Origin: Deltaproteobacteria bacterium
Lineage (GTDB): Bacteria > Desulfobacterota > Desulfobacteria > Desulfobacterales > ETH-SRB1
Direction of reading: 5' to 3'
DNA: 27,065 bases
Assembly: GCA_019309665.1 (NCBI GenBank)
Contig: JAFDFV010000001.1
Coordinates: 1 to 27,065, forward strand
A program made the translations under genes and the position numbers. The notes below the pieces were generated by a model, which saw nothing but the letters and a program-made list of their open reading frames with translations, did not search any database and was not told where the DNA came from. Positions 2,819 to 21,359 of the stretch are shown here, in pieces; positions within the stretch are counted from its first letter, which is position 1, and each line of letters opens with the position of its first letter.

Positions 2819-3681
2819 CTAAACAATCTGCGAAACCTCATCTATGGCTGCTGCATAAGCTGCTGCCAAGCCATCCAAATTTTCCTGAGCCCTCGCCAAA
2901 TCACTGTTATTGTCAATAAAAAATGGCTCAGCAATGAGACAAGGGGCTTTTGTATAGCGCAAAAGGTGGCCGCCTCTATCTTCAGCCGCCTTTGGCTTTG
3001 CTCCTCTGTTGGACAGTTTTAGATGTTCAACAAGATGATTGACAAGGATTTCGCCCATTTTCCTGCCCTTTTTAGATTTATGGTAATAAAGAACCTCAAC
3101 GCCTGAAGCTTTTCCATTAAAAGCATTGCAATGAAGGCTGATAACAAAATCGGGCTCAAGAGCATTTATGTCGTCTGGTAGCTCCTTATATGTCCTTCTG
3201 TAAATTCGCTGTATTCTGCATTTCGGATCTTCTTTTCAATGCGGATGGCCAAATCTTTGTTGAAATCGAACTCACTAAGGCCCGCCCTTTTGTTAAGCGC
3301 ACCAGGAGAGCTTTTCTTATGACCGATGACCAAGGCACAAAGCTTTTTCAGCGGAGCTATTTCCTGCTCACTTTCCAACTCAGACAGGCGCTCTTGAATT
3401 TCCGTTAAAGAAACGATGCCCTTTTCTGCAAGCTTTTGAATCAATGCGCCCGTTAAACGGGGCAGAGTTTCCACTACCTGTGCCGAATAGAGAATCTTGC
3501 CGGCAAGCTCCCCTTGGACCAGGGCTGTCTTGCTCAGATCTTCTTCGACCACAGGCAATGTTGCAGCCTCAGGCGGTTGTGGTGCCCCTTTGGCAAGTGT
3601 GGTAAGCAAAATCTTCCCAGATTCAGTCTTTAGATAACCATCCGGTCTAAGCGTTCCTATGAGCCAATCTTTTAACGCCAT
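2819..3681 (-). pseudogene. N-acetylmuramoyl-L-alanine amidase (Amidase_3) with an unknown N-terminal domain, split by a 1-nt frameshift at about 3214
   Basis: The upstream ORF carries LVIGH and SEFDFN. The shifted frame continues QRIYRRTYKELPDDINALEPDFVISLHCNAF...VEVLYY and joins ORF 2819-3058 (CLIAEPFFIDN). All Zn/catalytic residues (H, E, H, E) are present. Adding one base gives a single 287-aa ORF. Confidence 0.9.
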
Positions 3682-4618: not shown

Positions 4619-5548
4619 TCATTGTGGCTTGCTCAGCATTTTTCGTGTACGTACGAGTTCATGAACAACCTCGTCGTAATAGGGCTTTTCTTTAAGGCTG
4701 GCGCGTGAACCCGGAAAGTAAACCAGCGCTAATTCCGCACTTCCGGATTCCCAGCGTCTTAACACGATCGCGACGCGTTGTCCTTTTGAGAGGCGTGTGT
4801 TGTCTATTATAGGAAAATCGAAAAATCCGACACGAAAGGTAAAATCGGCTTCGACTTGGTCTTCCATCCAGATTTCTAATCTGACGCGTAGCTCTTTTTT
4901 GTTCTGGTCGTAGTCAAGCACCTCGACAATGAAAAGGCGGTTTGGTCCGCTGGAACCTATGTCCGCCGAAGGGAGCCGGAGTGTTTCCTCGAGTAGTTGG
5001 ATACCTTCAGGTTTGTTTTCCAAGTCTTCAAAGAACACAGTCATAGGCCGAACAACACCAACATCTTCTAATGCGCCAATTTGTTTGTCCGCTACCTCAC
5101 GGGCGACTTTTTCTAAACGTTTCTGTAAGATTTTACGCTCGTTTTCTGGATTGTTTTGGATATTTTCCTCCACATGTTTAAACAAAGGACCGAGATCGAT
5201 CACATCGTGGAAGTTATAAGCGATTAACTCCAAAGCTAGGACTTCCTTCCTGTTTTCCGGCTTGTTTTCCGATGACTTGGATTCCAGAAAGGCTTTTATA
5301 ATAGCATTAAACATCTCCTTTCGGAGGTCACTATCGGCTTTCTCCCGGTTGCTCATCAGTTCGGCATAAAGCCGAATGTTTGTTTCCGTTGCTTGTTGTC
5401 CCTCTAAGTATTGTGAGCCGAAGAACCCGACAAGGGCTATCGATACAGCCGCCAGCAATCCGCCTACAGGTCTGAGAACAACATCCCACTTGTCCCAGGC
5501 GTCCTTTTTCCTCTCCAGTTTCTTCCCATTGTCCTTTCCGTTCGCCAT
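4619..5548 (-). CDS. Hypothetical single-pass membrane protein
   Basis: 309-aa ORF with one N-terminal TM segment (VGGLLAAVSIALVGFFG) followed by a helical then beta-rich soluble region. It starts 2 bp after the upstream stop. Confidence 0.8.
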   Translation of the reverse strand: MANGKDNGKKLERKKDAWDKWDVVLRPVGGLLAAVSIALVGFFGSQYLEGQQATETNIRLYAELMSNREKADSDLRKEMFNAIIKAFLESKSSENKPENRKEVLALELIAYNFHDVIDLGPLFKHVEENIQNNPENERKILQKRLEKVAREVADKQIGALEDVGVVRPMTVFFEDLENKPEGIQLLEETLRLPSADIGSSGPNRLFIVEVLDYDQNKKELRVRLEIWMEDQVEADFTFRVGFFDFPIIDNTRLSKGQRVAIVLRRWESGSAELALVYFPGSRASLKEKPYYDEVVHELVRTRKMLSKPQ

Positions 5549-5550
5549 TG

Positions 5551-5877
5551 TTATCTCCTGCGCAGGACGTAATCGTCCCCCTGCCTGATCAACTCGAAGT
5601 CATAGCGGACTGGGTCCCGGTAGGAATTAATCGGATGTCTGGCTCCGGGAAAGCCAGGAAGCTCAAAAGAACAATTGCCTGTCTCGTTGACATAGATGCT
5701 GTAAGCGCCACGCTCGTTTGTTGTTCCAGGATAGGTTCTTTGAGCACAGGTAATCTGAATGGGTACCCCATGACCGATGGATCGGCCGTCTTGTCTCACA
5801 GTTCCATTTATTTTTCCTGCATAGGTTGCCGGCGGGAAAACCAAAATGGTTAACAGGACGAAAGTGCAAAGCTTCAT
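5551..5877 (-). CDS. Small secreted protein, prealbumin-like beta-sandwich
   Basis: RBS aaggagg before ATG 5877 (the longer start in the ORF track is unlikely). Signal peptide MKLCTFVLLTILVFPPATYA, then GKINGTV...TNERGAYSIYV; two Cys in the mature part; 108 aa. Confidence 0.75.
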   Translation of the reverse strand: MKLCTFVLLTILVFPPATYAGKINGTVRQDGRSIGHGVPIQITCAQRTYPGTTNERGAYSIYVNETGNCSFELPGFPGARHPINSYRDPVRYDFELIRQGDDYVLRRR

Positions 5878-5903: not shown

Positions 5904-6713
5904 TTATTTGGAAAGTACGCCAGTTATGGAGCCAATGAGAATAAAGATGCTCCATATAATAACAACGATCGCAATAATAATACCAATGATAGCATCGGCA
6001 ATACTGCAAAAGATTCCTGGCACAAATCCAAGACCAAACTCAATGATAAAAAAGGTCACAAATCCAGTGATCAGAAGAAGAGTTGCGCTCTTTATCCTGA
6101 TCATCTGACTTCCGCCAATCCAAAGAAGAACAGCAGCGACTATTTTGCACAATAGCCCAAGACCGCCTAAGATTAATACGGGACCTTTTGGGAAAGCTCC
6201 ATAGATAGCCGCGTAGATCAAAGGGCCAAAGGGCACTGCTAACAGAAGACCAATCATGATGATCAGTTTGAGAATCGCCTGCACAATCAGGAAGATTGAG
6301 ATAAATATGACGATAATAGAATTAATGAGACTGATAATCATTCCCACCCTGTGAACAGAGGCTTTAGTAATCAGCATGCCGATGAGGCTGATCAGGATGG
6401 AAAAGAAGACCACCCAAAGATAGAGCCCATCGGCTTCCAGACTGTAACCAGGTGGGGCAGGTTCTGATTCTGTAATTTTTTGCCTTGCCTCTTTTTTTGC
6501 GTCCAACCGATCAGGGTGATCTTTAGGTTTTCCTTCCTCATCCATTGTTTCATCAATACCATTATTGGCGTCTCTGATCATCTCCAGAGTGGTAGGAAGA
6601 AGCTTCTGAAAGAAGGGGAGATTGGGTCCTCCATACTCAATCCCAAATCCAATAAAGAGAAAGATAAGAGCTACGATAACAAAAGATTTCTTCAGGGGTT
6701 GTATAGTGCGCAT
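5904..6713 (-). CDS. Polytopic membrane protein (about 6-7 TM), probably eCIS-associated
   Basis: Long hydrophobic runs and motifs LLLAVPFG.LIY..IYG.FP.G and GFVPGIFCSIADAIIGII. Located just downstream of PAAR on the same strand. Confidence 0.8.
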   Translation of the reverse strand: MRTIQPLKKSFVIVALIFLFIGFGIEYGGPNLPFFQKLLPTTLEMIRDANNGIDETMDEEGKPKDHPDRLDAKKEARQKITESEPAPPGYSLEADGLYLWVVFFSILISLIGMLITKASVHRVGMIISLINSIIVIFISIFLIVQAILKLIIMIGLLLAVPFGPLIYAAIYGAFPKGPVLILGGLGLLCKIVAAVLLWIGGSQMIRIKSATLLLITGFVTFFIIEFGLGFVPGIFCSIADAIIGIIIAIVVIIWSIFILIGSITGVLSK

Positions 6714-6810: not shown

Positions 6811-6990
6811 CTAATCTGTTCTTCCTCCAGTAACAAGGGAAAGGATGAGGAAAACGATACCAAAGAGTAAAAATCCTCCTCCACCAATACTAAGGAAAAC
6901 TATTCCCTTAATTAAACCAATCACCAGTAACACGGCCCCTAACACTATAGAAGCAATCCACGCTAATCTTCCACGAATAATTAACCCCAT
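6811..6990 (-). CDS. Small two-TM membrane protein (59 aa, below the ORF-track cutoff)
   Basis: Strong RBS gaggaggtg before ATG 6990. MGLIIRGRLAWIASIVLGAVLLVIGLIKGIVFLSIGGGGFLLFGIVFLILSLVTGGRTD*. Confidence 0.85.
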   Translation of the reverse strand: MGLIIRGRLAWIASIVLGAVLLVIGLIKGIVFLSIGGGGFLLFGIVFLILSLVTGGRTD

Positions 6991-7018: not shown

Positions 7019-7318
7019 TTAATCCCCTATCAGTACAGTGGGTTCACCTTCAGCTACAGGGTCAGGACCACCAGTAGCTTCTTTCACAATATCACCAATC
7101 CTGGTTGCAGGAAATTCATTAATAAAAACAGCGTTGCTTCCACCATCGACTACACCACCTCCATGGGGATTAGGTGTAGCCAGTGGACAGATATGGAAAT
7201 CCTTCTTAGCCCGCCAGGCCGGCTTTTCCCCGATAAAAACATCCGGGCTTCCTGGACCGGGCTGCAAAGGACCACCATGTGCTGTCATATCACCTAAGCG
7301 TGCTGCCGGTTTTCTCAT
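7019..7318 (-). CDS. PAAR spike-tip protein (Afp10-like)
   Basis: PAARLGD.T.HGG, PAWR, HICP...PHGGG, PATRIGD motifs; 99 aa with no toxin extension. Confidence 0.95.
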   Translation of the reverse strand: MRKPAARLGDMTAHGGPLQPGPGSPDVFIGEKPAWRAKKDFHICPLATPNPHGGGVVDGGSNAVFINEFPATRIGDIVKEATGGPDPVAEGEPTVLIGD

Positions 7319-7399
7319 CTCTTCCTTTGAAATTCCATTACTGCTTCTTCATCTATTTGCTTTTTAATTACTTTAAGACGTAAAACCTCACGTAGAATC

Positions 7400-8134
7400 T
7401 CACGGTATCTTACGTGGAACCTCAAGTACCTTACGTTGTGGAACCTCAAGTTCAAGTGCCTTACGTGGAAACCCACCAGGTCGTATTCCAGGTGAAACCT
7501 TAACCGTAACGTTTCTTGTAACTTTTTTACCTTCTTTGTTCCTTGCCATTAATGTATAGGTAGTGGTTTTGTGAGGGCGAACTTCATTTCTACCGGACGG
7601 TCTGAACCTTTTTCCTAAAGGCTCAATTATAACTTCCACAGCATTTTTGGTTTTCCAGGTTAAATTTGATCGTTCGCCTTTTTTTATAGTGGAAGGGGCG
7701 GCTTTAAAAGAAACAATTTCAGGCGGCAGGATTTCAACCTTTTGCCCATTCCCAAAAAACTTTGGAATCACAAAGACTCCTACTAATACCAGGGCCAACA
7801 CAACGACACCAATGCCGGCGCCAATGAGTATTTTGGGCAAGATGGAAGATTTGGGTGTTGAGACAGTCTCTACGGCATCTTCTTCCATAGCAATTTCTAC
7901 GGGAATAATTTGTTCTTCAATTCTACGAGTAAGTGTTTTGGTCTTAAACCCCTCTTTTTTAGCAGTACAGGTCAGGGTTTCTCCTATATAGTCGGTAGAC
8001 TCTTCATGTGCAAAATAACCCTTTCCATCCGAATACAGACTTGCCATTTCAGTAGTTCCAACACTTAGGATAATCTTCGCTTCACCTAAAGGTTCTTTAG
8101 TTCTGGCGCTTATTGCAGTTCCTGTTATCTTCAT
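7400..8134 (-). CDS. Bitopic membrane protein: N-terminal prealbumin-like domain, TM helix, C-terminal Ig/PKD-like domain
   Basis: No signal peptide; ITGTAISARTKEPLGEAKI; TM ILIGAGIGVVVLALVLVGVFVI; PEIVSFKAAPSTIKKGERSNLTWKTKNA...TTYTLMA. Confidence 0.8.
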   Translation of the reverse strand: MKITGTAISARTKEPLGEAKIILSVGTTEMASLYSDGKGYFAHEESTDYIGETLTCTAKKEGFKTKTLTRRIEEQIIPVEIAMEEDAVETVSTPKSSILPKILIGAGIGVVVLALVLVGVFVIPKFFGNGQKVEILPPEIVSFKAAPSTIKKGERSNLTWKTKNAVEVIIEPLGKRFRPSGRNEVRPHKTTTYTLMARNKEGKKVTRNVTVKVSPGIRPGGFPRKALELEVPQRKVLEVPRKIP

Positions 8135-8166
8135 CTTTCCATTCCTCCTTAGAATTGATTTTCGTA

Positions 8167-9021
8167 TTATTCCTCAAGAATATATACCTTATACGAAACC
8201 TTGGCAGCCACATTAGAAAAGTTTTTAAAAAACAGTCGATATTTAACCTGATTGTCAGAAAAACTACTTTCTATTCTCCAACTTATTGCAGTATCCTGCG
8301 TGACTGGATAGGCGCTCACCAAATAATATCTATGAGCATTCTCTATGGGCAGACTCTCTAAAAAGACAGAGGTATCTTCATGGCCTGGTGTCTTCTCCTT
8401 GCTCTTAGCTACCCTTATTTCACCTTCGCGCTTAACTTTTCCCAAGTCTCTCAATCTTGTTGGTCCTTTAACTACTCCAGCCTCTCTTATATTCATTAAG
8501 TCTATCTCGTTTCTCTTTGGATTGAATGAATCTTCAGCATCCTTGATCTCTTTAACTCCTTTGGCCAATTCGATACGAGCTAATTCCAGAATGAGGAAGT
8601 TGTCTGGCTCCTGAGTACTTACTTCTACCTTAGGCCCCTCTTCGACAAAGGCATATCCGGTAAGGGTTGGATTGGCTACATTTTCTCTTTTATCTATTTT
8701 TTGTTCATCGTAGCTAATGGTAATATACACAGTCTGCGGAAGTGTGTAGTCACTAATTCTTATATCTAATTGCTTAGGTTCAGCCAGGAAGAGATCACGT
8801 CCTTCTCCATCAATGGCATAGCCGGGGGCTATATAAAGAGAGAATCTGCCTGCCGGGGTAACCTTTAATTCGCCGGAGTAATTGGGTACTACTCCAGGTA
8901 TATGCAGTGACTTATTGTGGAGTCTCCGCTTTTCTATATGATATTTCTGACCTGCATTCCAATCATCTGCTTTAGTGAAGAATCCTTCAAAAAAACTGAT
9001 CCTTTTAAATATTTCCATCAT
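8167..9021 (-). CDS. eCIS baseplate-peripheral / tail-fibre-base protein
   Basis: RBS aaggag before ATG 9021. N-terminal KRISFFEGFF...DWNAGQKYHIEKRRLHNKSLH.PGVV and IAPGYAIDGEGRDL, the pattern seen at the N-terminus of CIS fibre-attachment proteins. Confidence 0.65.
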   Translation of the reverse strand: MMEIFKRISFFEGFFTKADDWNAGQKYHIEKRRLHNKSLHIPGVVPNYSGELKVTPAGRFSLYIAPGYAIDGEGRDLFLAEPKQLDIRISDYTLPQTVYITISYDEQKIDKRENVANPTLTGYAFVEEGPKVEVSTQEPDNFLILELARIELAKGVKEIKDAEDSFNPKRNEIDLMNIREAGVVKGPTRLRDLGKVKREGEIRVAKSKEKTPGHEDTSVFLESLPIENAHRYYLVSAYPVTQDTAISWRIESSFSDNQVKYRLFFKNFSNVAAKVSYKVYILEE

Positions 9022-9038: not shown

Positions 9039-9926
9039 TCAACCTATATAACAATCCCATCCTATGGTTGAGTGAAATTCAATTTGCATAGGAAAGAGCT
9101 TAGGCCTTTCCTCATCAGGTGTATTAATCTTAAAGTAACAACTTGTGTGGGCCGGCTTCTGGGCATCTATTAATGAGCGAATTTTTTTAATGAGATTATT
9201 TCTTCGTTCTTTTTCTATCTTTCTCTTTTTAATTGAAGTGTATTCAAAAACAGGGTCCCATTCAGGGTCCCACTCTACTATAAAAGAATGAGCGGTATCT
9301 ATCTGCTCCATAATATTTGTATCAATCCCTACGCTTGAGTGTATACCAATTATGAAGCCGGCCGGCCAATTCCATTCCTTGATCTTTACCTCTACCTCGC
9401 CGAACCAGTCCAAAAAGTACTTCAAGCCTTTAGCAGTACCTCGCCATTTATAAAGCTCTGTTGCAATTTTGATAAGGTTCCTCTTCTTCTCTTTGCTCCA
9501 ACTCTCATCCAGAACTAAATCCACCCAGGAGGCTAACCAGGGCAAAAAATCTAAAGGCGCCCGATCAAGATCAAAATAAGTATAGATTTGATCTATTTTG
9601 ACCTCAAGACCTGAGAATATATGCTGAAAAATTTGCAAGAAGTCTTTTAATAAGTTTCCACCACTTATATCTTCCTGGTGATAGATAGCAGGCAGGTACT
9701 GTAAATAACTCCTGCGTGCTACAGTCAGGTCCACCGCCTGTCCCTGATTGAGTAGAAAGCCCGGTTTCGGCTTTTGAGTTAGGACCACCCCTTCCTCTTT
9801 CTCATTGTCCTCATGATATGTAACCTGTCCAAGCGTCAGCCCTGATTGAAAAAGTCTTTCTCCGGCTTCTGAGAGTAATAAATCTATAAGTCCGGGCGTC
9901 CCAATCTGTAACAAAGTTGTTGACAT
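9039..9926 (-). CDS. P2 gpI-like baseplate wedge protein (TIGR02242-type) with an N-terminal PASTA domain
   Basis: YLQYLPAIY, FLPWLASWV and LYKWRGTAKGL, plus C-terminal IDAQKPAHT. Residues 11-70 fit the PASTA pattern. Confidence 0.88.
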   Translation of the reverse strand: MSTTLLQIGTPGLIDLLLSEAGERLFQSGLTLGQVTYHEDNEKEEGVVLTQKPKPGFLLNQGQAVDLTVARRSYLQYLPAIYHQEDISGGNLLKDFLQIFQHIFSGLEVKIDQIYTYFDLDRAPLDFLPWLASWVDLVLDESWSKEKKRNLIKIATELYKWRGTAKGLKYFLDWFGEVEVKIKEWNWPAGFIIGIHSSVGIDTNIMEQIDTAHSFIVEWDPEWDPVFEYTSIKKRKIEKERRNNLIKKIRSLIDAQKPAHTSCYFKINTPDEERPKLFPMQIEFHSTIGWDCYIG

Positions 9927-20903: not shown

Positions 20904-21359
20904 TCATCTGCGAAGACCTATAGGTCGCTTTTTGGTCAAGTGGTCCTGGAAATAAGCATACAGCCGCTCGTAGCGCATATCGAGTGTCGGAGCCAGGCAG
21001 ATCAGGATGGTGTCCACATCAAAGGGAGTTAAGTGAAAGAGGCGCGCCGGTTCGTTAAGACACAGGGTAATGCCCTGTATGGTGCTTTCGGTCTTGCATT
21101 TGCCAATGTCAACGGCCATCCGGTCAAACGCGATCCTAACCTTAGTATAGAACGATGGCGATAGAGCACTTGCCCAGAGGGGTAAACAGATCAGCAGTTT
21201 CAAAAGCGCATCTATCTCTTGCTCAGAGTTAGAGAGACCCTGGAATTCGCAGTTGCTTTTCTGTACTTCACGCGTTAGCTGCACCTGCCTCTTAATGATC
21301 AGATCAATACGCTCTATTTCTGCCTGGATGTGTTGAAGTGATGTGGTATAGTATTCCAT
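20904..21359 (-). pseudogene. N-terminal fragment of the eCIS AAA+ ATPase (Afp15/Pvc15-like)
   Basis: EIERIDL, FQGL..SEQEIDALL and LFHLTPFDVDTILICLAP.LD.RYERLYAYFQD..TKKRP, then a stop after 5 more residues. No Walker motifs are visible downstream before Pvc16. Confidence 0.8.

Follow-up and report, generated by a model that had tools for sequence, protein, structure and literature searches.

What is a membrane protein with a single transmembrane (TM) helix doing inside the baseplate operon that belongs to a contractile injection system (CIS)? The mode of action of a CIS cannot be read from its core genes (PMC12998442), and in the window analysed here, the whole stretch of 27,065 nucleotides, a gene for such a bitopic protein stands among them. 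The operon is complete and co-oriented, with genes for cap (Pvc16_N), sheath, two tubes, LysM-tube, hub, spike, gp25, baseplate J, PASTA-wedge, a 284-aa protein in the fibre position, the bitopic protein and PAAR; apart from the 284-aa and bitopic genes these are the components that mark an eCIS-type contractile injection locus, and all were found. The cap gene lies 12 kb from the bitopic gene. The host genome contains LpxC and a split dsrA-like match, and the host is therefore a diderm and probably a sulfate reducer. As a sequence-only reading of this DNA had stated, the bitopic gene is embedded in the structural operon. It lies 32 nt past the stop of the fibre-position gene and 81 nt ahead of PAAR, all co-oriented. 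The features are:

7019..7318, minus strand: PAAR gene (PF05488, E 6.5e-16), adjacent to the bitopic gene here, an adjacency lost in distant loci
7400..8134, minus strand: bitopic protein gene (P0001, 244 aa), ATG start, open reading frame intact
7403..7492, minus strand: variable tail of the bitopic protein, basic and Pro/Arg-rich, replaced or extended in close orthologs by CARDB, ricin-B or a second Ig
7493..7729, minus strand: PKD/Ig-like domain, aa 136-214, predicted periplasmic (AF2, Foldseek), a repeat module of large surface proteins
7766..7831, minus strand: single TM helix, aa 102-123, from hydropathy
7874..8134, minus strand: N-domain, aa 1-87, a transthyretin/CarboxypepD_reg-like beta-sandwich, predicted cytoplasmic, from predicted fold and conservation
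8144..8150, minus strand: strong Shine-Dalgarno AAGGAGG, 9 nt 5' of the ATG of the bitopic gene
8167..9021, minus strand: fibre-position gene, 284 aa, with a Cis13/Cis19-type shoulder (about aa 1-160) and a compact head, no fibre shaft
8170..8421, minus strand: C-terminal head of the fibre-position protein, candidate docking site from its co-occurrence with the bitopic family
9039..9926, minus strand: baseplate wedge (Cis12/Tail_P2_I, N-terminal PASTA), expected carrier of the shoulder trimer from the Alg12-Alg19 contact (PMC13314943)

The bitopic protein has one hydrophobic segment (residues 102-123; Kyte-Doolittle maximum 2.94 in a 19-residue window) and, by hydropathy, no signal peptide, as all windows starting before residue 94 score at most 1.2. 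The Ig-like domain at 136-214 is real (AF2 pLDDT about 94, with PKD/Ig matches in Foldseek), and the architecture read earlier from the letters, a central TM helix followed by an Ig-like domain, is thus borne out. That reading missed a folded N-domain. Since AF2 modelled the full-length protein poorly except for the Ig domain (pTM 0.38), we folded this part separately; residues 1-87 reached a pLDDT of 94.7 and matched the carboxypeptidase D transthyretin-like domain (TM-score 0.73, Z 12). The N-domain is also the most conserved part of the protein among close orthologs, with a mean identity across 23 of them of 87%, against 86% for the TM helix, 75% for the Ig domain and 36% for the tail; some carry an extra CARDB, ricin-B or second Ig. 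Relatives at 65-99% identity number 36, and the Ig module recurs up to 45 times in giant proteins, most of them signal-peptide-bearing. The whole protein falls in no family of Pfam, NCBIfam or PHROGs, its Atlas matches are all below 0.9, pattern scans of genome-contig and viral-contig collections returned no relative and there was no plasmid match; a metagenome pattern scan found two near-identical loci. A promoter/terminator scan stayed at chance level. The EVPxRK tail is encoded by short, imperfect DNA repeats (7390-7470) that run beyond the stop codon and are a likely place for the tail to change in length.

Searching with an N-domain profile reaches other bacteria and ANME-2 and other Methanosarcinales archaea, so the family is no speciality of diderms. 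The layout is constant: 101 of 104 N-domain proteins have exactly one TM helix with all of their one to four N-domains ahead of it. The C side carries Ig stalks, CARDB, ricin, BACON, PEGA, fn3, crystallin, F5/8, LamG and cyclophilin domains, as well as collagen with an S74 chaperone and a Methanosarcina-type S-layer domain; the N side is occasionally fused to a TIR domain or zinc ribbon. K+R is higher before the TM helix in 20 of 26 dereplicated TM helices and higher after it in 3, although kin are not independent. Architecture, fused domains and charge bias together make N-in/C-out, the orientation suggested earlier, a well supported prediction for the family. The transthyretin-like fold of the N-domain, usually extracytoplasmic, counts against the cytoplasmic-membrane dock proposed below. 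Individual members show further variation: P0229 and P0235 carry TIR_2 at the N-terminus, predicted to face the cytoplasm, the ectodomain of P0223 (collagen repeats and an S74 chaperone domain) resembles a membrane-anchored tail fibre, and the called starts of the ANME-2 members (L037:7872-12388) appear to lie about 28 codons late, with an open frame upstream that completes the first N-domain.

The N-domain family was found at CIS loci only, in bacteria and archaea alike, with identities of 17-45%. Roughly 400 genomes from the host's phylum and as many from its class yielded no further member, and those without the locus gave no match to the N-terminal family; the host's relatives mostly lack the whole locus, and the bitopic family is as rare and patchy as the locus itself. 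One match, in G488, was rejected as a member, being a polytopic protein with a generic periplasmic fold from a genome without a CIS tube match.

The gene keeps its place over large distances. In all seven lineages with informative DNA, including ANME-2 archaea, it is linked to a CIS and follows the fibre-position gene within one to two genes, also in loci with a rearranged gene order. In the window's clade one locus (L007) has two tandem copies; GCA_024449895 has at least two, also CIS-linked; L034 keeps the gene at the fibre-position gene in a rearranged CIS locus; ANME-2 L037 has two copies with one gene inserted; L079 is CIS-linked; and G438, G448 and G449 have copies after the fibre-position gene and copies before the sheath gene, with no overlap joining contigs C162 and C275 of G438. 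L031 and L035 end too early to be informative on context, and P0044 (L035), with no CIS gene on its contig, starts near the contig end. Since PAAR lies elsewhere in GCA_024449895, L034, L037 and L079, the constant neighbour is the fibre-position gene; of the synteny expected earlier, conservation at the fibre-position gene stood and conservation beside PAAR did not. L032 is an exception to the pairing with a head described below, as its bitopic gene follows a DUF6519 gene whose product has none. The DUF6519 protein did not align to the shoulder profile.

This constant neighbour looks like a tail fibre cut short. The 284-aa protein matches NCBIfam CIS13_fam (E 8.7e-8 over residues 4-111, below the cut-off) and, in profile comparison, 7B5H All3314/Cis19 (E 9.8e-7); on these matches its N-terminus is a baseplate-binding shoulder of the Cis13/Cis19/Alg19 type, homologous to Cis13/Cis19 of the Anabaena tCIS (PMC8894136) and Alg19 of AlgoCIS (PMC13314943). 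It has neither a fibre shaft nor a TM helix of its own (hydropathy maximum 0.79, no fibre match). The shoulder homolog L077 continues into a tail fibre, with tail-fibre matches, whereas the 284-aa chain ends instead in an 84-residue head. Stand-alone shoulder-only genes of 170-180 aa occur in three genomes of the host's order (L094, L096, L097), with no CIS gene in the surrounding DNA fetched.

Head and bitopic gene co-occur. In five lineages the gene ahead of the bitopic one encodes the head, and the head of L079, outside the set used for the head profile, matched it with E 7.8e-19. Conversely, CIS loci found through the shoulder alone, with downstream DNA available (12 groups), had no head and no member of the bitopic family in the DNA fetched. 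G448 has one CIS of each kind, and all three of its family copies are at the head-type locus. Head-positive loci with downstream DNA were all reached through the bitopic gene, an ascertainment that limits the statement that the head implies the gene; L059 ends 71 bases past its head gene. A Fisher test of the co-occurrence was set aside, since kinship among the loci and this ascertainment make it invalid. In a tree of shoulders (196 columns, long branches) a single clade of head-bearing genes was rejected (p-AU 1.5e-4) and three to four changes were needed, with G533 and G618, which have neither head nor partner, nesting among head-bearing genes. Because head-bearing genes do not form one clade, head and bitopic gene appear to have been gained or lost together more than once. 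We infer from this co-occurrence that the head is a candidate docking site for the N-domain.

Co-folding the 284-aa protein with the N-domain (1:1, each with its own alignment) gave a score of 0.53 against 0.00 for the best control, with contact agreement of at least 98% between runs and a partner pLDDT of at least 88. Of the calibration pairs, 58 of 80 solved and 2 of 110 mismatched ones passed, and scores of 0.60 or below included only 7 of the solved pairs and both mismatches. The result is worth more because the pair was chosen beforehand from synteny, and it lends weak support to a predicted binding of the two proteins, one of the two pairings for which the sequence-only reading had proposed such modelling.

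We suggest that the bitopic protein is a putative cytoplasmic-membrane dock for an eCIS-type CIS without a tail fibre of its own, working like TssK-TssL or CisA, a reading to which we give an even chance. The family probably ties CIS machines to the membrane of their own cell. In AlgoCIS the shoulder of Alg19 has a TssK-like fold and binds the Alg12 wedge (PMC13314943), and in canonical T6SS the TssK head binds the membrane complex TssL/TssM (PMC5924787). From these contacts and the match to TssK reported below we infer a chain of wedge, stub trimer, N-domain, TM helix and ectodomain: the shoulder trimer would sit on the wedge, as Alg19 on Alg12; its head would bind the cytoplasmic N-domain, stably or transiently; and this contact would keep the particle at the membrane, as the TssK head does with TssL/TssM. 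More tentatively, the exchangeable ectodomain (here one Ig and a basic tail, elsewhere lectins, Ig stalks or S-layer domains) could grip or sense the envelope and might gate firing, and tandem paralogs would give several specificities. Outward firing across a diderm outer membrane is unexplained, because a one-Ig ectodomain would stay periplasmic and no trans-envelope channel is recognisable, Pfam and NCBIfam scans of the locus proteins giving no TssM/TssJ-type match. The machine may act by self-directed killing of the producer, as in Streptomyces, after lysis, as in Anabaena, or across the envelope, as in T6SS.

The membrane anchor proposed earlier was modelled on CisA (SCO4242) of Streptomyces coelicolor (PMC12237407). 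Its link to the CIS is upheld by synteny over distant lineages, and its adaptor role is plausible, with weak structural support. The analogy to CisA holds in part. Both proteins are bitopic, N-in/C-out (here predicted) and proposed membrane adaptors, and cisA too directly follows the baseplate genes, in the usual place of fibre genes; here the fibre-position gene stands between the wedge gene and the bitopic gene. However, the N-region of CisA is unstructured, in contrast to the folded, conserved beta-sandwich here; its C-domain is conserved and solute-binding-like, in contrast to a PKD/Ig domain that varies across the family; it is predicted to bind Cis11, whereas the likely partner here is the fibre-position protein; and it belongs to an actinomycete CIS without a fibre gene, whereas here a fibre stub is kept. 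Compared by published description, the bitopic protein is not a CisA by domain make-up. Its layout is closer to Sco4256, Sco4257 and Sco4258, published as effectors, which have similar N termini, one TM helix, variable C-domains including a ricin lectin, and tandem paralogs in the CIS cluster (PMC10066040); again by published description, and judging from locus tags, their genes lie beyond the sheath gene sco4253, away from the baseplate genes, rather than at the fibre-position gene. The one Streptomyces CIS examined (L110, of another CIS type) had no N-domain match.

The docking logic is likely closer to TssK-TssL than to CisA. In canonical T6SS, too, a shoulder-neck-head protein sits on the wedge, its head meets the cytoplasmic domain of an inner-membrane protein, and the genes are adjacent (PMC5924787), as tssK and tssL are on contig C525 of the host itself. 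The shoulder profile matched the host's own TssK weakly (hhalign E 0.0044, probability 7.8%). Unlike TssL, the bitopic protein has a beta-sandwich and a central TM helix, belongs to an eCIS-type machine and lacks TssM/TssJ matches in its locus; P0001 gave no match to the DotU cytoplasmic domain (PF09850), and the genome's only DotU is on C525. That contig (L106) carries part of a canonical T6SS, with TssK (PF05936), TssL (DotU) and a membrane gene truncated where the contig stops, so that the host genome has injection systems of two kinds. Anabaena Cis13 anchors to the membrane from the fibre position by its own TM helix, whereas here a modular protein of its own, which also has an ectodomain, carries the TM helix. 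The haloarchaeal T6SS anchor candidate Hbor_38620 is likewise a membrane protein, and its presence correlates with an eCIS-type machine being attached to the membrane, but it has six TM helices, is encoded upstream of its cluster and differs in architecture; its authors leave room for a membrane partner of Cis11/12/13 (PMC11566945).

Other roles have to be weighed against the same evidence. The protein could be an envelope sensor or trigger for the CIS that binds not the fibre-position protein but another baseplate part (as predicted for CisA and Cis11) or neighbouring membrane proteins, or that signals to assembly or lysis; variable, ligand-type ectodomains, tandem paralogs, the additional copies that G448 and G449 have upstream of the sheath gene, the headless L032, TIR fusions and a polytopic gene after PAAR in several loci would all suit it. 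We consider this unlikely, given an adjacency to the fibre-position gene that persists even in a rearranged locus, the co-occurrence with the head and the weak co-fold pass. A cargo or effector that the conserved N-domain brings into the tube or onto the spike, as proposed for Sco4256-4258, would share their similar N termini, single TM helix, variable C-domain with ricin-type lectin, and tandem copies (PMC10066040), and would fit the PAAR neighbour in the window's clade. That neighbour is lost in distant loci, however; the C-domains are binding and stalk modules with no toxin family match, members reach some 1000 aa and combine several folded Ig domains with a strong TM helix, and the positive-inside bias implies normal membrane insertion, all of which renders cargo improbable.

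Fibre-like ectodomains (collagen with S74 chaperone in P0223, a tail-collar match, lectins) raise the further idea of a detached fibre tip, a target binder on the producer's membrane used after lysis on ghosts or vesicles in the manner of tCIS, or leaving together with the particle; in Anabaena, Cis13 has a TM helix of its own as anchor, and particles act from ghost cells (PMC8894136). Against this, a one-Ig ectodomain would be too short to exit the periplasm of an intact diderm and S-layer domains point to binding of the cell's own envelope, and we allow the idea only a slim chance. That the protein is a passenger, inherited along with the locus as a surface protein that plays no part in the machine, is very improbable: unrelated adhesins commonly contain the Ig module and P0044 is a possible orphan, but the N-domain family is found only at CIS loci at identities as low as 17%, is single-copy in the host genome and gave no match in the locus-free genomes among those of class and phylum scanned.

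If the bitopic protein is a membrane dock, the means by which CIS machines are attached to a membrane would grow by a further, independent one. The two-gene signature of a head-bearing stub and a bitopic partner would then predict membrane attachment from sequence, the contact of head and N-domain is small, soluble and testable although the hosts are uncultured, and the ectodomains are candidates for recognition of a partner or the envelope. A broader and doubtful possibility is that an eCIS-type class, from sediment bacteria to ANME archaea, has split its tail fibre into a baseplate stub and a swappable receptor in the producer's membrane, such that a TssK-TssL-like coupling evolved independently, the machines are cell-attached and outside ligands control firing. 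CIS occur in all ANME groups and some sulfate-reducing partners, with function unknown, and the passages searched in papers on them discuss no protein of this kind (PMC9012536, PMC10553843, PMC12180501); one treats the ANME systems as secreted eCIS (PMC10553843). Were the split-fibre reading true, these systems would be recast as membrane-bound devices at the syntrophic interface. In the literature outside subscription we found no description of the bitopic family, which so far as this search reached is undescribed; its kind, a membrane adaptor of an eCIS-type machine, is already known.

The surroundings of the operon hold further observations, all on the minus strand. The only ORF upstream of the cap gene (20904-21359) is fragment-like, with 151 aa, where an Afp15-type ATPase might be expected. 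After PAAR comes a very hydrophobic 59-aa ORF with a strong RBS (6811-6990); in L001 and L004 a 100-aa hydrophobic ORF stands immediately before PAAR. An Amidase_3 fragment (3166-3681) has full-length homologs beside CIS loci in G448 and G373, one without a bitopic gene. The protein encoded at 5904-6713 is polytopic and without a family; homologs (44-50%) follow PAAR in G438, G448 and G449, and it is therefore a conserved second membrane component. Finally, 4619-5874 encodes two proteins, a beta-sandwich protein with a signal peptide, whose true start is probably Met46 of the listed ORF, and one of 309 aa with a single TM helix; homologs of both (32% and 43%, respectively) adjoin the CIS in G449.
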